Assembly (NCBI GenBank): GCA_963732385.1
Contig: CAVSZB010000007.1
Location: 1,184,001 to 1,248,000 of the forward strand
Length of the DNA: 64,000 nucleotides
From: an uncultured bacterium
GTDB taxonomy: Bacteria; Krumholzibacteriota; Krumholzibacteriia; LZORAL124-64-63
Direction of reading: 5' to 3'
Both the position numbers and the translations under genes were made by a program. The first letter of the stretch is position 1; each line of letters starts with the position of its first letter. Shown here one piece after another: positions 16,285 through 26,251 of this stretch. Below the pieces are notes generated by a model, which searched no databases, was not told where the DNA came from, and was given only the letters and a program-made list of their open reading frames with translations.

Positions 16285-17001
16285 TCACGGTCCCCCGCCG
16301 TTTTCCGGCTTGAAAACCGCCGCGAGGCGGTCGAACCGGTCGATCAGCAGATCCGGCGCGGCCGCGCGCACCAGCGCGGGAGATGTCAGCCCGTAGGTGG
16401 CGCCGACAGCGACGGCGCCGATCCCCCGCGCGGCCAGGATGTCGTTGGGACTGTCCCCCACCACCACCACGTCGGTCGGCGCCAGCGCGAGTCCGTCGAG
16501 ACAGGCCGTCAGGTGACCGGGATCGGGTTTGCGGCGCGGCACGTCATCGGCCGCCACGATCCTCCGGAAACAACCGGCGATGCCCAGACCGACCAGGATC
16601 GTCCGCGTGAAGACGGCCGGCTTGTTCGTCGCCACGGCCAGCGGCACGGCGGAGAAACGGTCCAGAGTCTCGCGAACGCCCGGATAGAGGGCGGTCGCAT
16701 CGAGACAGTGCCGGGCATAGTGTGTCTGGAACAGCGCCACTCCCCGCCGCACGGCATCGTCATCGACCACCGGCGACGCATCGTCGGGATGCGCGGAGTG
16801 GGTCAGCAGACGACGCACGAGCATCGACGCGCCATCGCCCACGAAGCCGAGCACGACCGCCTGCGACAACTCAGGCCGCCCGAGCATCGCGCGCATGTGG
16901 TTCGCGGAGAGCGTAATGTCCGCGCCGGAGTCGGCCAGGGTACCGTCCAGGTCGAAAATGAATGCACCGACGCGGCGTGTCGGGCCTCCGTCGCGCTTCA
17001 T
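16285..17001 (-). CDS. HAD hydrolase, phosphoglycolate-phosphatase-like
   Basis: 'FDLDGTLAD', 'ATNK', 'KPDP', 'VGDSPND'. Confidence 0.85.
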   Translation of the reverse strand: MKRDGGPTRRVGAFIFDLDGTLADSGADITLSANHMRAMLGRPELSQAVVLGFVGDGASMLVRRLLTHSAHPDDASPVVDDDAVRRGVALFQTHYARHCLDATALYPGVRETLDRFSAVPLAVATNKPAVFTRTILVGLGIAGCFRRIVAADDVPRRKPDPGHLTACLDGLALAPTDVVVVGDSPNDILAARGIGAVAVGATYGLTSPALVRAAAPDLLIDRFDRLAAVFKPENGGGP

Positions 17002-17171
17002 GGCCCTCCCCGGTGGCCCGTGGATCATAGCCCCACAACGCCCGCGGGGCAAGCGGGGGCGTCGCGACGCCACCATTCATCGTTGTCGCACCCGCCGGGC
17101 GACGGTATACTTAACCTCCCGACCAGACGCGGACCGGACGCCCGCCCGGCGCCCTCACGGAAGGAACCGAC

Positions 17172-18281
17172 ATGCGAGACGACAACAGGCGCGGCCGGTT
17201 TGATGACGAGGACAACCTGTTCAGCGAACTGCGCGCCGAATTGGACGCTGTCGATCAGAATGCGGATTCCGCGCCCGCCAGCCTCGGCCCGAAAGCACCC
17301 CCCGACCCGCCGGCGCAGAACCGACCCGGGGCGCCGACGGTCTCCGCCTATCCGCCCGAGGGTTTCGATTCCGACGAGGCGCTGGACCGCCTGCCTTCGC
17401 TACCCTCACGCGCCGGCCGTTCCCGCGGCGCGTCGTCGCGCGCGCCGGGCAAACGCCCGTCGCGTTTCATCCTCGGCGCCGTCTGCCTCGCGGTGGTGGG
17501 GGCCGTTTTCCTGTTCTGGCGGCCCGGTGGGAAGCCGGAAACGCCGCTCGGCGTCGGCGAGCACACCTCGACCGTCACGCAGGGGAGCGCCCGCTCCACC
17601 GCCGAGCCGGTCACCGAACCGGTCGACATCGCCGCGGAGGTGCGTCCGCTCGCGGCCGAGCAGGGGGCGGCGAGCGCCGACGCCGGAACACCGAGCGTCA
17701 GAACGCCGAGTCTGACCACGCCGACCAGCAAACGGCTGGTCATCACCCCCCCCCAGACCACCCCCCGAAGCGACCCCGTAAAGCCGGTCATTCAGCCCAA
17801 CGTCGGGACATCCCACTCCCCGGCGGCAACCGGCTCCGGCGCGCACGCCGTTGCACCCGCCACGTCCGGTACGGCGCGCGCGACCGGCGACGAGCCCCCG
17901 CGCAGCTTCGCGATCGATCCGGAGACGACTCCCCCGCCCGCCACGGCATCGGAATCGACGGCGCCCACCGCCCTCGCCGACGCCGCGGAAGCGCCTCCCA
18001 CAACCACCGTCTCAACGACCGCCTCCGGTGCGCAGCCCGCGACCGAAGGGGCGTGGGCGCTGCAGTTGGGCGCCTTCTCCACGCAGGAGAACGCCGACGC
18101 CCTGGCCGGGAAACTGCGCAGCCAGGGCCTGCGCCCCTATATTCAGGCCGGCAGCAGTTCGCGCGGCGGGCTGGTCTTCAAGGTCGCGATCGGCTACTTC
18201 GCCACGCGGGAAGCAGCCGTCGCATACGCGCGGAACAATGTGCGACTTCTGGGCCCGCAGGCGCTGCCGATCCACCGCTGA
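17172..18281 (+). CDS. single-TM SPOR-domain protein
   Basis: one TM helix, Pro/Thr-rich linker, C-terminal 'WALQLGAFSTQENA...KVAIGYFATREAA'. Confidence 0.85.
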   Translation: MRDDNRRGRFDDEDNLFSELRAELDAVDQNADSAPASLGPKAPPDPPAQNRPGAPTVSAYPPEGFDSDEALDRLPSLPSRAGRSRGASSRAPGKRPSRFILGAVCLAVVGAVFLFWRPGGKPETPLGVGEHTSTVTQGSARSTAEPVTEPVDIAAEVRPLAAEQGAASADAGTPSVRTPSLTTPTSKRLVITPPQTTPRSDPVKPVIQPNVGTSHSPAATGSGAHAVAPATSGTARATGDEPPRSFAIDPETTPPPATASESTAPTALADAAEAPPTTTVSTTASGAQPATEGAWALQLGAFSTQENADALAGKLRSQGLRPYIQAGSSSRGGLVFKVAIGYFATREAAVAYARNNVRLLGPQALPIHR

Positions 18282-18359
18282 TCTCCCGGCCGCGGCCGCG
18301 CGCCGCGACAGGGCCGTGCCGGTTCGCGATTCGCCGACGCCGGCCGGCAGGAGGGCACC

Positions 18360-19352
18360 ATGCCGAACGCCGCCATCATCGGGACGGGGCACTATCTGCC
18401 GGAACGGGTCGTCACGAACGATGATCTGACGCGGCTGATGGACACGTCCGATGCCTGGATCCGCGAACGCACCGGGATCGCGGAGCGACGCTGGGTCGAG
18501 CCGGGCACCAGCGGCGCCGAACTCGCGCTGGCGGCGTCGCGGATGGCGCTCGCCGACGCCGGCCTCTCCGCCGCGGAGATCGATCTGCTCGTCTACGCCA
18601 CCGTCAACCCCGACTATGCGTTCCCCGGCAACGGGCCGCTGCTGCAGCAGGCGCTCGGCGTCGACACGATTGGCGCCATGGACATCCGCAACCAGTGCAC
18701 CGGGTTCGTGTACGGCATCGCAGCGGCGCATGGCTTCATCGCCTCCGGCGCGGCGCGGACGGTACTGGTCGTGGGCTCGGAGATCCACTCCACGGGGCTC
18801 GACGTGAGCACGCGCGGCCGGGACATGGCCGTGCTGTTCGGCGACGGCGCGGGCGCCGTCCTGCTGCGCGCCACGGACGAGGACCGCGGCGTGCTGGCGA
18901 GCGTTTTGCACAGCCAGGGCGAATTCGCGCGCGAGCTGTGGTGCGAGCTGGCCACGGCCCTCGTGCCTGGACGCTGGAACGACGCCCTGGCGGCGGAGGG
19001 ACGCCAGTATCCGAGCATGAACGGCCGCACCGTTTTCCAGCACGCCATCCGCCGCTTCGGCGAGGCGATCGACGAAGTACTCGCCAAGGCCGGCGTGGCC
19101 AAGGACGACGTGGCGCTGTTCGTGCCGCATCAGGCCAACCAGCGCATCACGGAAATGGTGATCCGTCGCCTGGGGGTCACCCCGGACCGGGTCTGCTCGA
19201 ATATCGAGCGCTACGGCAACACCACCGCCGCCTCGATCCCGATCGCCCTGAGCGAGGCGGTCCGCGCGGGCCGGGTCCGGCGCGGCGATCTGGTGGTGCT
19301 GGTGGGCTTTGGCTCCGGATTCACCTGGGGCGCCAACCTGATCCGGTGGTGA
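18360..19352 (+). CDS. fabH: 3-oxoacyl-ACP synthase III
   Basis: 'GTGHYLP', 'WIRERTGI', catalytic 'QCTGF', 'PHQAN', 'YGNT', 'GFGSGFTWG'. Confidence 0.9.
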   Translation: MPNAAIIGTGHYLPERVVTNDDLTRLMDTSDAWIRERTGIAERRWVEPGTSGAELALAASRMALADAGLSAAEIDLLVYATVNPDYAFPGNGPLLQQALGVDTIGAMDIRNQCTGFVYGIAAAHGFIASGAARTVLVVGSEIHSTGLDVSTRGRDMAVLFGDGAGAVLLRATDEDRGVLASVLHSQGEFARELWCELATALVPGRWNDALAAEGRQYPSMNGRTVFQHAIRRFGEAIDEVLAKAGVAKDDVALFVPHQANQRITEMVIRRLGVTPDRVCSNIERYGNTTAASIPIALSEAVRAGRVRRGDLVVLVGFGSGFTWGANLIRW

Positions 19353-19519
19353 GCGGAAAACGGGTGGAACCGCAACTTCAAGCCTGCAAGAGGCTTGCCT
19401 TTGCACCTTTCGCTGGACGCCTTCCTCTCCCCTTCTATATTTGAGCCCGACGGACGCCGCCCTCCGCGCGCATCCCGGCGCCGGCCGCGTCAGTCCCATC
19501 CCCAACCCCGGCGGCAACC

Positions 19520-21427
19520 ATGTCCCACGACCTCCCTGTCAACGATCCCCGCCTGCGCGGTCCCCTGCCCGACCACGGCGCCTGGACCGCGGAGCAGTAC
19601 CGCGAACTCGGGCTGAAAGTGGGGCTCGAAATCCACCAGCAGCTGCTGACCGCGCACAAACTGTTCTGCCGCTGCCCCGCCGGCTGCTACACGCACGAAT
19701 TCGACGCCGAGATCCTGCGCCACATGCGCCCCACGCTGTCGGAACTGGGCGAGTACGACGGCACGGCGCTCATGGAGTTCAAGACGCACAAGGAAATCAT
19801 CTACCGGCTCAAGAACGAGTCGGTCTGCACCTACGAGATGGACGATGCCCCGCCGTTCGAGCTGAACGCCGAAGCGCTCGACCGCGCGGTGGCGATCGCG
19901 CTGCTGCTCGGCTGCCAGGTCGTGGGCGAGGTGCACATCGCGCGCAAGCAGTACCTCGACGGCAGCATCCCGACCGGCTTTCAGCGCACCGCCATCGTCG
20001 GTGTGGCCGGCAAGGTGCCGTTTCGCGGCCGCGAGATCTTCATCCGCCAGCTCGCGATCGAGGAGGACTCCTGCCGCGAGGTGAGCGACCGCGGCCACAT
20101 CCGCACCTACCGCACCGACCGCCTCGGCATGCCGCTCATCGAGACGGTTACCGATCCGGATATGCGGACGCCGGAGGAAGCGGCGGCCGCGGGGCAGCTC
20201 CTGCGCAGGCTGGTGCGCGTGACCGGGCTGGTGCGGACCGGCGCCGGCGCCGCCCGGCAGGACGTGAACGTCAGCATCGAGGGTGGCACCCGCATCGAGA
20301 TCAAGGGGGTGCACAGCCTGCGCGCGATCCCGGCGCTCGTGCATTGCGAGGCGCTGCGCCAGCGCAGCCTGCTGGCCATCCGCGACGTGCTGCGCGAACG
20401 GGGCGTGCAGGCCGAGGCGCTCAAGGACCGCACCGTGGACGTCACGCCGATCCTGCGCACGACCGGCTGCGTCTTCATCCGCCGCGCGCTCGACGAAGGC
20501 GCGGTGGCCGGGGCCATCCCTCTGCCCGGATTCGGTGGACTGCTGGAAGCCCCCACGCAACCGCGCACCACGTTCCTGCGGGAGTTCTCCGACCGCGTCC
20601 GCGTCATTGCCTGTCTCGACGAGGCGCCCAATCTCGTCAGCTCCACGCTCGAGGGGACGCTTTCGAGCAACGAGTGGGTGCGCATCGGCAAGGCGTGCGG
20701 AGTCTCTCCCGAAACCCCGGTACTGGTGGTCTGGGGGGGGGCCGAAGACGTCGCCACAGCCGGCCGCGAGATCATGCTGCGCGCGCGCGAGGCGACGCTC
20801 GGCGTGCCGTCGGAAACGCGCCAGGCGCTCGACGACGGCACGAACGCGTTCGAGCGCATCCTGCCCGGCCCCAACCGGATGTATCCCGATACCGACCTGC
20901 CGCCGGTATGCCTCGAGGACGCGCGGGTGCATGGCATCGCAGCCGACCTGCCCGAGCCGCCGTGGCAGCGGCAACAGCGGCTGAGCGAACTCGGTGTCGG
21001 CGAGGATCTTGCCGAGCGCCTGGCGCGCCACCGCGCCTACGATCTCTTCCTCCATCTGGAGTCCCGGTTGAAAGCCGGAACGGCCGCCTCGCCCCAGGGT
21101 TTGGCCTCGCTGCTGCTCGATCGCTGCTGCCCCCGCCCGCCCAGTCTGGCCGCCGCCGGCCAATGGTGGGAACGGGTCGTGGAGCGCCTGGCGCGGGGCG
21201 AGATCCTGCCGGAGGGGATCTGGACCAGCGATGACGAACCTCCCGCCGCCTGTCCCGACCCGGAGGCCCGCCGCCTGGCGAACGCCGCGCTCGCGGCGTT
21301 GCCGCCCGATGGCCCCGCCGAACCGGCCCAGCGCGAGGAGTGGACGATGGGGCATGTGATGCGCGCGTTGCGCGGCCGGGTGCCCGGCCGGCGGGTCCGC
21401 GCCTGGCTTAAGGAGGCGCGCCCGTGA
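19520..21427 (+). CDS. gatE: archaeal-type Glu-tRNA(Gln) amidotransferase subunit E
   Basis: 'GLKVGLEIHQQL', 'RKQYLDGSIPTGFQRT', 'IEEDS', 'DRLGMPLIE', 'RQDVNVSI..GTRIEIKGV', insertion domain, 'VPSETR', 'RMYPDTDLPP'. Confidence 0.92.
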   Translation: MSHDLPVNDPRLRGPLPDHGAWTAEQYRELGLKVGLEIHQQLLTAHKLFCRCPAGCYTHEFDAEILRHMRPTLSELGEYDGTALMEFKTHKEIIYRLKNESVCTYEMDDAPPFELNAEALDRAVAIALLLGCQVVGEVHIARKQYLDGSIPTGFQRTAIVGVAGKVPFRGREIFIRQLAIEEDSCREVSDRGHIRTYRTDRLGMPLIETVTDPDMRTPEEAAAAGQLLRRLVRVTGLVRTGAGAARQDVNVSIEGGTRIEIKGVHSLRAIPALVHCEALRQRSLLAIRDVLRERGVQAEALKDRTVDVTPILRTTGCVFIRRALDEGAVAGAIPLPGFGGLLEAPTQPRTTFLREFSDRVRVIACLDEAPNLVSSTLEGTLSSNEWVRIGKACGVSPETPVLVVWGGAEDVATAGREIMLRAREATLGVPSETRQALDDGTNAFERILPGPNRMYPDTDLPPVCLEDARVHGIAADLPEPPWQRQQRLSELGVGEDLAERLARHRAYDLFLHLESRLKAGTAASPQGLASLLLDRCCPRPPSLAAAGQWWERVVERLARGEILPEGIWTSDDEPPAACPDPEARRLANAALAALPPDGPAEPAQREEWTMGHVMRALRGRVPGRRVRAWLKEARP

Positions 21428-22806
21428 GCGACGAATGGAAGGGCTATCGCGATCCGACCCTTGCAGTGCTGAAAGCGCACGGCGCGCGGGTCTGGAGCGA
21501 GGCCACGGTCCACACCACGCGTGGCGATTTCGCCGGCTTGATCCTGCCGCGCAGCGAAACGGCCGACCGGGAGCATGTCGTGCTCAAGCTGGAGACCGGC
21601 TACAACGTCGGGCTGCGCTTCGACACCGTCACCGGCATCGACGTGCACGGCCACAAGGAAGCGCACTACAAGATTCCGGAGAAGGCGTTTCCGTACGACC
21701 CCGTCAAGCCGCGCGTGAAGCTGTTCGGCACCGGCGGTACGATCGCCAGCCGGCTCGACTACCGCACCGGCGCCGTCATTCCCGCCTTCTCGCCGGGCGA
21801 ACTGTACGGCTCGGTGCCGGAGCTGGCCGACGTGTGCAATCTCGAGACCGAGAAACTGTACGGCGTCTTCAGCGAGAACATGGGGCCGGAGCAGTGGATC
21901 GGCACGGCCGAAGCGGTCGCGCGAGAGATCGAGAAGGGGGTGGCCGGAATCGTGATCGGCCACGGCACCGACACGATGCACCACACGGCGGCCATCCTGT
22001 CGTTCATGCTGCAGGACCTGCCGGTGCCGGTGGTGATGGTCGGCAGTCAGCGTTCCAGCGACCGCCCGTCGTCCGACGCCGCCATCAACCTGATCAACGC
22101 GGCCCGCACCGCCGCCACGAGCGACATCGCCGAGGTCATGGTCTGCATGTTCGGCCCCACGAGCGACCAGTACGACCTGCTCCACCGCGGCACGCGGGTG
22201 CGCAAGATGCACTCCAGCTACCGCTCGACCTTCCGCACGATCGGCGACGTGCCGCTCGGGCGCGTCGACGCCGGCGGCGTAACGCCGTTCCGCGCCGACT
22301 ACCGTCACCGCCGCGATGACAACCGGGTCACCCTCAATACCGGCTTCGACGACCGTGCGGCGATCGTCTACTACTATCCCGGCATGAAACCGGACATCAT
22401 CGACTCGCTCGTGGACCACGGATACCGCGGCATCGTCATCGCCGGCACCGGGCTCGGGCACGTGAATCGGCCCCTCTACCCGGCGTTGCGCCGCGCGCAC
22501 GAGGCCGGCGTGGCCATGTTCATGACCGTGCAGACCCTCTGGGGCTACGTCCAGATGTACGTCTACGAAACCGGCCGCGAGATCATGGAACTGGGCGTCG
22601 TGCCGGCCGCGAACATGCTGCCCGAGGTGGCCTACATGAAACTGGGCTGGGCTCTGGCGCAGACCCAGGATCTCGCCGAGGTGGAACGCATCATGCTCAC
22701 GCCGATCGCCGGCGAGATCACCGAGCGCGAACCGCACAACGGCTACCTGGTGCTGCAGGGCGGAATTCCCGAGGTGGACCGGTTCATCTCCCAGTACTGG
22801 AAGTAG
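21424..22806 (+). CDS. gatD: archaeal-type Glu-tRNA(Gln) amidotransferase subunit D
   Basis: N-terminal 'VLKLETGYNVG' domain plus asparaginase motifs 'TGGTIASRLDYRTGAV', 'HGTDT', 'GSQRSSDRPSSD', 'RKMHSS'; GTGA overlap with gatE. Confidence 0.92.
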   Translation: MSDEWKGYRDPTLAVLKAHGARVWSEATVHTTRGDFAGLILPRSETADREHVVLKLETGYNVGLRFDTVTGIDVHGHKEAHYKIPEKAFPYDPVKPRVKLFGTGGTIASRLDYRTGAVIPAFSPGELYGSVPELADVCNLETEKLYGVFSENMGPEQWIGTAEAVAREIEKGVAGIVIGHGTDTMHHTAAILSFMLQDLPVPVVMVGSQRSSDRPSSDAAINLINAARTAATSDIAEVMVCMFGPTSDQYDLLHRGTRVRKMHSSYRSTFRTIGDVPLGRVDAGGVTPFRADYRHRRDDNRVTLNTGFDDRAAIVYYYPGMKPDIIDSLVDHGYRGIVIAGTGLGHVNRPLYPALRRAHEAGVAMFMTVQTLWGYVQMYVYETGREIMELGVVPAANMLPEVAYMKLGWALAQTQDLAEVERIMLTPIAGEITEREPHNGYLVLQGGIPEVDRFISQYWK

Positions 22807-22837
22807 TCCCCCCCGCGCGGGGAACGCGCGTGTCGCT

Positions 22838-23077
22838 TCAGTGGCAGCCGCAGCCGCCGCACTTGTGCCCGCCGCCCGAGCCGCAGCCGCCGCCGCACCC
22901 GCCGCAGCCGGCATGACCGCCGGCCTGACGCGCTCCACCGGTCACGGCGAACGCCGACACCGCCTTGCGCACGCGGCGCGAACCGCAGTCGGGACACGGG
23001 ACCTTCGCCGACGACGTCGGCACCAGTTCCTCGAACCGGCCGCCGCACTTGCCACACACGAATTCAAAAATCGGCAC
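22838..23077 (-). CDS. FmdB-family zinc-ribbon protein
   Basis: 'PIFEFVCGKCG..FE...CPDCGS', Cys/Gly tail; GGGAG RBS. Confidence 0.8.
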   Translation of the reverse strand: MPIFEFVCGKCGGRFEELVPTSSAKVPCPDCGSRRVRKAVSAFAVTGGARQAGGHAGCGGCGGGCGSGGGHKCGGCGCH

Positions 23078-23094
23078 GGCACTCTCCCGGCGAC

Positions 23095-25182
<2,088 letters not shown>

Positions 25183-25312
25183 GAGAATACAGTCCTTCCC
25201 GGGCGGAGAGACGCCACAACTGCGGGCAGTCTAGCCTGTCGGCAGCCCCCGGGCAAGCGGCCGTGACCAGCCGCCGCGAGCGGTCCCGCGCTCGCCAACG
25301 CCCCCGCTCGGC

Positions 25313-26251
25313 TCAGTCGGGAAGCGCCCCGTCCGCCTGGCTGACCAGCCGCGCCCCCGGCGGGACCGAACTGGTGATCCAGCACCCGCCGCCGATCACG
25401 GCGCCGCGTCCGATGACGGTCCGGCCGCCGAGGATCGTGGCGTTGGCGTAGATGGTGACGTCGTCCTCGATGGTGGGATGGCGCTTGCCCCCCCGGGCGA
25501 TGCTGCCGTCGGGGTTGCGCGGGAAGCTGAGCGCGCCCAGCGTCACCCCCTGGTACAGCTTCACGTTCGCGCCGATGACGGTCGTCTCTCCGATCACCAC
25601 GCCCGTGCCGTGATCGATGAAGAAACCGGGCCCGATCCGCGCTCCGGGGTGGATGTCGACCCCCGTGCGGCCATGCGCCCACTCACTCATGATCCGCGGG
25701 ATGAGCGGCACGCCGGCCGCGTAGAGCGGGGACGCGAGCCGGTACACCGCCCCGGCGAAGGCGCCGGGATAGCAGAGGATGATCTCGTCGCGGCTGACCG
25801 CCGCCGGATCGCCGTTGAAGGCCGCCTCCACGTCGCCCGCCAGCAGGGCGCGCACCGCCGGCAGCTGGTCGAGGTACTCCCGCGCGATCCGCTCGCCGGC
25901 CCGCGCGAACCCCTCAGCTCCCTCGTCGCCCTCGGGAGTCCAGAGTTTCGCGCAGTGGCAACGCTCCCGGTAGCAGAAACGCAGGGCGCGTGCGATCACG
26001 TCCGTCAGTTCAAGGCACAGGGCGTCGAGTCGCGCCGCAACGAGCACCGCAAGATCGGCGCGCGCCGGCACGTGTCCGCCGTGATAGCCGGGAAAGATCA
26101 CCGTCAACAGCTGGCGCAAGATCTCCTCGATCCGCGCCTGCGATGGCAGGTCCTTCTCACCCACGCGATTGACCCCGCCGAAACCGGCGTAGGAATCGAC
26201 GATCGCCCGCGCGAGGTCGTCCCGACGCGGCCCCCAGTCCTGCGTATCCAA
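25313..26251 (-). CDS. cysE: serine O-acetyltransferase (EpsC/CysE type)
   Basis: 'GDPAA', 'TGVDIHPGARIG.GFFIDHGTGVVIGET', 'KRHPT'. Confidence 0.9.
   Translation of the reverse strand: MDTQDWGPRRDDLARAIVDSYAGFGGVNRVGEKDLPSQARIEEILRQLLTVIFPGYHGGHVPARADLAVLVAARLDALCLELTDVIARALRFCYRERCHCAKLWTPEGDEGAEGFARAGERIAREYLDQLPAVRALLAGDVEAAFNGDPAAVSRDEIILCYPGAFAGAVYRLASPLYAAGVPLIPRIMSEWAHGRTGVDIHPGARIGPGFFIDHGTGVVIGETTVIGANVKLYQGVTLGALSFPRNPDGSIARGGKRHPTIEDDVTIYANATILGGRTVIGRGAVIGGGCWITSSVPPGARLVSQADGALPD

Follow-up and report, generated by a model that had tools for sequence, protein, structure and literature searches.

The GatDE amidotransferase has been termed archaea-exclusive and an archaeal signature protein in reviews up to 2022, in which its co-evolution with an A1-U72 tRNA(Gln) is held to keep GlnRS from archaea (PMC8762117, PMC9499178). 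Its best-known representatives are those of Methanothermobacter thermautotrophicus (PDB 2D6F, with tRNA(Gln)) and Pyrococcus abyssi (PDB 1ZQ1), in which GatD joins a GatD_N domain to an asparaginase domain and GatE is built of a catalytic core, an insertion, a helical domain and a tail. The Mg-binding His/Glu/Glu residues of GatE are essential (PMC2330236). In one report (PMC2943598), the GatE insertion domain is described as favouring GluRS over AspRS, and archaeal GatDE as poor on bacterial Glu-tRNA(Gln). Bacterial GatCAB, for example that of Staphylococcus aureus (PDB 3IP4), works on U1-A72 tRNAs (PMC2811023); it has a paralogous core and the same chemistry, and it differs from GatDE in using the GatA amidase, lacking the insertion domain and reading U1-A72 through a 3-10 turn. 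Our literature search turned up no publication on bacterial GatDE.

The window analyzed here, a 64,000-nucleotide stretch of bacterial DNA, contains an intact gatE ORF (19520–21427, ATG start, 635 aa) and an intact gatD ORF (21424–22806, GTG start, 460 aa), both on the + strand, as are all features given below. The two share the GTGA at 21424–21427, where gatD starts inside the gatE stop, and translational coupling is predicted. fabH and a SPOR-domain gene lie upstream. The fabH-gatE spacer holds a sigma-70-like promoter match, TGGACG-16-TATATT (19414–19441; one seen against 0.1 expected in shuffles), which is a consensus match only. GC3 values of 0.89 for gatE and 0.91 for gatD fall within the 0.84–0.95 of neighbouring and housekeeping genes. 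The overlap, the full-length gatE with all its quoted motifs, the bacterial surroundings (the fabH and SPOR genes) and the matching composition had been described in an earlier note on this DNA, and each description holds. An Rfam search of 17000–25500 returned no match. Three RNA runs contain relatives; their cover is flat over genes and spacers alike and does not demonstrate transcription.

The gatDE pair is native to the bacterial chromosome. Its 1.6-Mb contig, probably from a member of the Krumholzibacteriota, also carries tmRNA, gatCAB and glnS, and contigs of a close relative, from independent runs, bridge the SPOR-fabH-gatE and gatE-gatD junctions. A chimeric contig or a recent archaeal island is ruled out by these bridging contigs, the native composition and the phylum-wide conservation of the pair. 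The wider explanation by artefact or relic, which would also include decaying genes, can draw on at least one probable indel error in the assembly, a frameshift that splits asnS, and is very remote.

Both proteins pass curated cut-offs: GatE scores 471 bits against NF003107 (cut-off 456) and 415 bits against TIGR00134 (cut-off 320), compared with just 140–145 bits against the two best GatB models (cut-offs 315–338), and GatD scores 509 bits against TIGR02153 (cut-off 324). The window pair is GatE and GatD, as first proposed, rather than GatB and a plain asparaginase. The closest solved relatives are 1ZQ1 and 2D6F, by sequence and by fold. The AlphaFold model of GatE (pLDDT 93.6) finds its best fold matches in the same two structures, with 36–40% identity in the structural alignments and TM values of 0.77–0.81 by target. 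The subunit pair and the domain order are those of archaeal GatDE. The GatE catalytic core comprises aa 26–292 (19595–20395) and aa 416–465 (20765–20914, with FERILPG..RMYPDTD). Between the two parts lies the GatE-specific, AspRS GAD-like insertion domain (aa 293–415, 20396–20764), with a bacterial RVRVIACL motif. The predicted helical arm and YqeY-like tail follow at 20915–21424. Residues His39, Glu181 and Glu208 align with the Mg-binding His15, Glu157 and Glu184 of 2D6F, and this triad is 94–97% conserved across the bacterial branch. The insertion domain aligns to 1ZQ1 and 2D6F and gives weak fold matches to AspRS; Pfam GAD has no match in the window GatE at E≤0.05. Bacterial GatE lacks the GatB-type 3-10-turn loop and has a shorter, GatE-type loop there. 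In GatD, the predicted N-terminal domain is present as PF18195 (aa 29–69), together with TGGT (103), HGTDT (180) and KMH (261), the motifs of the type I asparaginase Thr nucleophile and Thr-Lys-Asp triad. All catalytic motifs are thus kept in both subunits. Unlike archaeal GatDE, the window GatD carries a conserved C-terminal extension of ~20 aa.

Bacterial GatDE is not a rarity and forms a large bacterial branch, already labelled GatE by NCBI's pipeline. Of 125 good genomes of the phylum, 105 have GatE; the branch also extends to many other bacterial phyla, where its distribution is patchy (9 of 35 genomes in another class). gatD follows gatE in 12/12 and 20/20 phylum loci and in 70 of 80 wider loci, at 70–85% identity. 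The view that gatDE is old in its host rather than recent is borne out. Plasmid and phage collections yielded no bacterial-branch GatE, only one haloarchaeal GatE and GatB-level matches. The nearest archaeal group is an Asgard one (Heimdallarchaeota-labelled, P0165 group), whose GatE shares MRPTLSELG.YD and RKQYLDGSIP. Quick trees nest the bacterial branch next to Asgard sequences (SH-aLRT 91), whereas archaeal monophyly is favoured by 29.55 log units in the AU test (p 0.89). The archaeal-monophyly tree has the higher likelihood; an Asgard donor is backed by the quick trees only and, like acquisition from archaea in general, is no more than a candidate explanation.

Archaea lack GlnRS (PMC9499178), whereas the window genome encodes, besides GatDE, a GlnRS (693 bits, cut-off 426), asnS and a separate gatCAB operon away from gatDE. 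The A1-U72 pair of archaeal tRNA(Gln) is replaced by U1-A72 in both of its own tRNA(Gln) genes and in all 70 genes inspected from 65 phylum genomes. Of the interpretation in the earlier note, a true, old GatE/GatD pair with a divergent arm stands, while two parts lack support: a co-adapted A1-U72 tRNA(Gln), which occurs in 0 of 70 genes, and GatDE as the cell's route to Gln-tRNA, with GlnRS and GatCAB both encoded and none of the 107 GatE-positive genomes lacking both GlnRS and GatB. An archaeal-like A73 discriminator in tRNA(Gln)CUG (49 of 65 genomes) was rejected as a sign of co-adaptation, as it does not covary with GatE: A73 also occurs in 10/10 GatE-negative genomes, and 16 GatE-positive genomes have G73.

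GlnRS is present in 94 of the 107 GatE-positive genomes, 42 of which have no GatB. The 13 without GlnRS all keep GatB, though AsnRS is nearly universal. These 13 would agree with an archaea-like division of labour, in which GatDE would be the main translational Glu-amidotransferase at least in GlnRS-less lineages, and a second, non-Arg GluRS is seen in four of them, the f3, f7 and f8 members with a second GluRS in the alignment. Opposed to this are 11 genomes without GlnRS and GatE in which GatB alone suffices, the lack of any A1-U72 tRNA(Gln) among the 70 genes, and the GlnRS of the window genome. The search for a bacterium relying on GatDE alone gave three candidates among 26 other-phylum genomes, and all fell away. 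In G221, a contig end seems to truncate GlnRS; in G224, even GluRS is missing. G220 has GatE and two GluRS with no GlnRS or GatB, in agreement with this view, but 2 of 35 genomes in its class lack all three genes, so that G220 fits incompleteness. Such a division of labour is quite improbable.

A second, non-Arg GluRS clade was found in sampled genomes of 7 of 9 families and could make Glu-tRNA(Gln). Five near-complete genomes (G110, G123, G019, G168 and G057) have just GlnRS and one GluRS; for G019 and G057, whose GluRS sequences were aligned, it is of the Arg type. Four of these five have no GatB, and the source of Glu-tRNA(Gln) in them is therefore not obvious. A second GluRS beside glnS was considered as a GatDE partner and dropped, G000 and G008 being the sole genomes among 96 that have close copies. 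A precedent for keeping an amidotransferase beside both direct synthetases is the Bdellovibrio-type redundancy (GlnRS, AsnRS and GatCAB), where the lack of asparagine synthetases leaves Asn formation to GatCAB (PMC4206432). The window genome has three GS-family and two AsnB-family genes, so this explanation does not carry over; a bypass of missing glutamine synthetase was likewise discarded. Full-length glutamine synthetase is also found in 4/5 genomes of the family with an asnA neighbour.

The archaeal tRNA-facing motifs of GatE are replaced throughout the bacterial branch. The window GatE has GAARQD in place of archaeal G[TS]IRQD and KGVH in place of KGVQ. The Gln of KGVQ is absent in 80/80 bacterial loci, while the Asgard sister sequences retain it along with GTIRQD. 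Loss of this Gln, together with the reportedly poor use of bacterial Glu-tRNA(Gln) by archaeal GatDE, is as expected if bacterial GatE is adapted to a different first base pair. The helical arm of the window GatE falls ~15 aa short of the median length and, as the earlier note remarked of the C-terminal region, is divergent: Pfam GatB_Yqey has no match in the window GatE at E≤0.05, and the tail scores range from none to 48 bits in bacterial members against 88 bits in the P0165 group. The AlphaFold model nevertheless retains the helical arm and tail, with a YqeY-like arm that is visible, strongly diverged and still in possession of its pocket residues. The MG..M..LRGR pocket is kept, and G611, M614, R618, G619 and G623 are present in 73–95% of 22 bacterial sequences; tRNA-elbow binding is therefore probably retained. 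Across phyla, the GatE core is 71–76% and GatD ~74% identical, compared with 21–22% for the tRNA arm. Drift of helical arm plus tail relative to core distance is 6.3–6.6 in bacterial GatE, 1.6–2.4 in archaeal GatE and 2.0–2.7 in bacterial GatB, an approximately threefold acceleration that suggests relaxed tRNA recognition. Altered tRNA specificity was the better half of the earlier guess.

The archaeal GxxAxG tail motif is absent from the window GatE. GXXAXGX, implicated in the exclusion of Asp-tRNA(Asn) (PMC2811023), is found in 0 of 33 bacterial tails, which raises the question of whether the specificity of GatDE was widened, or shifted, to Asp-tRNA(Asn), making it an Asp-amidotransferase where GatCAB was lost. 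The U1-A72 pair of the window genome's tRNA(Asn), and an AspRS with the His motif of PDB Asp/Asn ligases in four GatB-less genomes, would agree with such a switch. However, the loose pattern matches only 29 of 79 archaeal-type tails and is thus a weak marker; the AspRS motif follows family, not GatB loss, with Leu/Met in 7 of 11 readable GatB-less genomes (22 of 40 loci readable). All but one of 128 genomes (127) encode AsnRS, the window genome has its AsnB-family genes, and a clash between the insertion domain and AspRS has been predicted (PMC2943598). We therefore regard the switch as decidedly doubtful.

As the hosts are already able to load glutamine on tRNA otherwise, GatDE probably serves as a side route or for repair. 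We lean, by a modest degree, toward an auxiliary enzyme that amidates Glu-tRNA(Gln) and has become adapted to bacterial tRNA. By analogy with its family, a D2E2 complex would form, GatD would release ammonia from Gln or Asn, and the ammonia would pass through a tunnel to GatE, which would phosphorylate and then amidate the gamma-carboxyl of tRNA-bound Glu. With Glu-tRNA(Gln) as the predicted substrate, the enzyme may remove tRNA mischarged by GluRS, or supplement Gln-tRNA when free Gln is short. The retained insertion domain, the second GluRS clade and the glnA and asnA neighbours support this auxiliary role. Against it count the lack of any GatE-positive genome in which GatDE visibly takes over from the other routes, the drift of the arm and tail, and the absence of an obvious Glu-tRNA(Gln) source in genomes with just GlnRS and one GluRS. 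glnA is the immediate upstream neighbour at 5 of 20 loci, and asnA is close by at 3 of 20, in separate families. The products of both genes make amide donors.

The same neighbours, the patchy occurrence across phyla, the contrast between a conserved core and GatD and a drifting arm, and the retention of GatDE in the 42 genomes with GlnRS and without GatB, some with a single Arg-type GluRS, could also point to a repurposed amidotransferase acting on a glutamyl group of something besides ribosome-destined tRNA(Gln). Candidates include a different tRNA, a small molecule, or a carrier (RNA or protein) that is recognised loosely, with amide-nitrogen handling in anaerobic sediment bacteria as a conceivable setting. 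Repurposing is rather unlikely in view of the kept tail pocket and insertion domain, the absence of precedent in the literature search and the neighbourhoods: across phyla, no partner gene, biosynthetic and carrier genes included, is conserved beside gatDE in 80 loci. We only tentatively entertain the broader reading that GatDE across many phyla left its textbook job to amidate another substrate, in a branch that is possibly the sister group of archaeal GatE as a whole. Such a position would make bacterial GatDE a surviving bacterial line of descent from the GatDE that has been proposed for LUCA.

It should be mentioned that the bare presence of bacterial GatDE is already in database labels, so the value of the present analysis lies in the question of function. 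A large bacterial GatDE branch that coexists with U1-A72 tRNA and GlnRS overturns the archaeal-signature claim and provides a natural swap experiment on first-base-pair recognition by GatE. It is also relevant to whether both amidotransferases were present in LUCA. Should the substrate prove to be other than Glu-tRNA(Gln), bacterial GatDE would represent a new use of tRNA-amidotransferase chemistry.

The gatE-gatD pair is real, intact and native to its host, and belongs to a bacterial GatDE branch that is common though undescribed. Its open reading frames lie exactly where the earlier note had placed them, gatE at 19520-21427 (635 aa) and gatD at 21424-22806 (460 aa), and share the overlapping GTGA. 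The GatE is a true GatE rather than a GatB, since it clears the cut-offs of two curated GatE models (471 bits vs 456, and 415 vs 320) and falls below those of the GatB models. GatD scores 509 bits against a cut-off of 324 on TIGR02153 and contains the GatD_N domain PF18195. The nearest solved structures, 1ZQ1 (P. abyssi) and 2D6F (M. thermautotrophicus), are also the best fold matches of the AlphaFold model of GatE, in which all four domains are present (mean pLDDT 93.6). In an alignment with 2D6F, His39, Glu181 and Glu208 fall on His15, Glu157 and Glu184, described in PMC2330236 as essential Mg ligands. GatD carries a C-terminal extension (aa 440-460, window 22741-22803) beyond the part aligned to archaeal GatD, and its GG.PE is conserved in 61/64 bacterial loci.

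The pair is located on a 1.6-Mb contig, which also holds tmRNA, gatCAB and glnS, in a 3.82-Mb genome (G000) that is 96% complete; named close homologues are from Candidatus Krumholzibacteriota, the likely phylum of the host. The GC and GC3 of both genes are native, in agreement with the earlier reading of their composition. Contigs of a close relative from other public sequencing runs span SPOR-fabH-gatE (X4 record 24) and the gatE-gatD junction (X4 record 27, X17 record 4). A tRNA-Sec gene at G000:C7:836762-836859 (-) indicates that the host likely encodes selenocysteine. Additional tRNA-Lys, -Arg and -Glu copies at G000:C2:238295-281580, unlike the main isoacceptors, are possibly on an integrated element.

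Within the phylum, TIGR00134 detects GatE in 151/208 genomes and in 105/125 high-quality ones. gatD lies 3' of gatE in 12/12 and 20/20 phylum loci examined; one locus has an intervening gene and two a frameshifted gatD. In genome G060, gatE and gatD are separated by a gene (L036:4895-6430) that, on inspection by eye, is ABC-type and solute-binding-like. Of the 20 loci, 5 have glnA immediately upstream, 4 of these scoring above cut-off; in 3, asnA is nearby, with a score just below cut-off. A bacterial-branch profile search of the GTDB collection matched at least 600 stretches, at least 597 of them confirmed relatives, which may include Asgard archaea because these share both search patterns. 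The best 80 of these are all titled bacteria (including Ignavibacteria, Kapabacteria, other Bacteroidota, Aminicenantes, Myxococcota, Phycisphaerae, Marinimicrobia, Calditrichota, Cloacimonetes and Aegiribacteria). Some of these titles look unreliable; locus L143, titled Fibrobacteraceae, is doubtful since it has the window's gene neighbours and 75% GatE identity. Of the best 80, 70 have gatD downstream and 8 of the other 10 end at a contig edge; the full-length GatD of 64 loci are 70-85% identical to that of the window (median 74%). No neighbour gene is conserved across phyla among these 80 loci. In the relatives' loci L143, L147, L152 and L179, but not in the window, fabH and gatE are separated by a Rex-like redox regulator gene (identified by eye).

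GatDE is described as confined to archaea in PMC8762117 (2022), PMC9499178 (2022) and PMC2811023. Full-text searches of open-access articles turned up no study of bacterial GatDE. These proteins already carry the GatE label in the NCBI and JGI pipelines.

An 87-sequence GatE tree separates the bacterial sequences, plus P0391 and P0328, from the rest by a branch with SH-aLRT 100; the next group is labelled Heimdallarchaeota/Asgard. P0391, a sequence with a Thermoplasmata label on a 5.16-Mb contig, has bacterial-branch motifs and a strong archaeal-like tail; it is either mislabelled or the product of bacteria-archaea transfer. The phylum's own sequences are split into four groups, a pattern that may reflect exchange between bacteria. 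A quick tree rooted on five GatB, with 21 rows left out of its set, nests the bacterial branch beside the Asgard group (support 91). The tree constrained to archaeal monophyly was better by 29.55 log units (p-AU 0.89). Archaeal sampling comprised the best search matches and one truncated haloarchaeal sequence. The branch may stem from transfer from archaea or from ancient inheritance.

The suggestion that GatDE is the host's route to Gln-tRNA is not supported by the genome, which encodes gatC-gatA-gatB and GlnRS, besides two GluRS, AspRS, three GS-family and two AsnB-family genes. Its asnS is split by a frameshift at G000:C3:276042-277428 (-) (L011/L012), probably an assembly error, as the same-genus genome G001 has asnS in one open frame. 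The second, short GluRS (L005, G000:C7:1330947-1332257 (+)) is immediately 3' of glnS, groups apart from the resident GluRS and has close copies only in G000 and G008 among 96 genomes; it appears to have been imported recently.

In the 128 genomes of at least 90% completeness, GatE occurs with GlnRS and GatB in 52, with GlnRS and no GatB in 42, with GatB and no GlnRS in 13, and without both in 0; 21 have no GatE. Related genomes in this set do not count as independent cases, and whether GatB is retained depends in part on the family. That GatDE is the main route in GlnRS-less lineages seems improbable to us. Action on Asp-tRNA(Asn) we rate as similarly improbable; AsnRS is present in 127/128 genomes. 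Of 26 GatE-bearing genomes from other groups, 21 yielded GlnRS and 7 GatB, and incomplete assembly can account for the three that yielded neither.

Sampled genomes of seven phylum families have a second GluRS clade (L213-L230) in which the discriminating Arg is mostly absent. At the column that our own alignment equates with T. thermophilus Arg358, this anticodon-reading position holds mostly Asp/Asn/Ser/His. Arg358 is the discriminating Arg in T. thermophilus GluRS (PMC2978374). By sequence, these enzymes are candidates for GluRS that are non-discriminating or specific to tRNA(Gln). In the other two families, five near-complete genomes each contain a single GluRS, Arg-type in the two aligned, so GatDE is kept even without an evident Glu-tRNA(Gln) source.

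A co-adapted tRNA(Gln) had also been raised as a possibility. The bacterial pair U1-A72 is found in both tRNA(Gln) genes of the window's genome and in 70/70 from 65 genomes (mostly the CUG isoacceptor; in five without encoded CCA the pair was read by eye). The Gln of KGVQ (Gln240 in 2D6F), which reportedly contacts the first base pair (Oshikane 2006), is 97% conserved among 78 archaeal-type sequences and missing from all 80 of the best 80 bacterial loci, with mostly Pro or Ser there. The archaeal G[TS]IRQD is G[AS][AGT]RQD in the bacterial branch; Asgard sister sequences retain both motifs. [quoted passage not shown] The tail motif GXXAXGX described in PMC2811023 occurs in 0/33 bacterial tails.

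The C-terminal tRNA-binding region is indeed divergent, as the earlier note had it: among 22 named bacterial GatE, the median pairwise identity of the core is 0.71-0.76, that of the helical arm 0.22 and that of the tail 0.21, vs 0.51-0.54, 0.27 and 0.37 among 52 archaeal-type GatE. The arm-to-core ratio of Kimura distances is 6.3-6.6 in bacterial GatE, a large value inflated by saturation and alignment error, 1.6-2.4 in archaeal GatE and 2.0-2.7 in bacterial GatB (n=21, from overlapping genomes). Tail pocket residues in bacterial GatE are still conserved (73-95%).

The tRNA(Gln)CUG of the window's genome (L050, G000:C7:1328903-1328976 (-)) has A73, C3-G70, G37 and A38, where the identity set for bacterial GlnRS tabulated in PMC9976931 is G73, G3-C70, A37 and U38. 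Going by these positions, GlnRS may charge it poorly. A73, the archaeal discriminator, is present in 49/65 phylum genomes.

The pair is most likely still a tRNA-dependent amidotransferase. By family knowledge (PMC2330236), GatD would release ammonia and GatE would phosphorylate, then amidate, tRNA-bound Glu, with the altered GatE loops presumably accepting U1-A72. Because of its distribution, we lean towards GatDE being auxiliary here, repairing mischarged tRNA(Gln) or providing a top-up when amide nitrogen is limiting. Action on a different substrate we consider less likely. The substrate of bacterial GatDE is a testable question.
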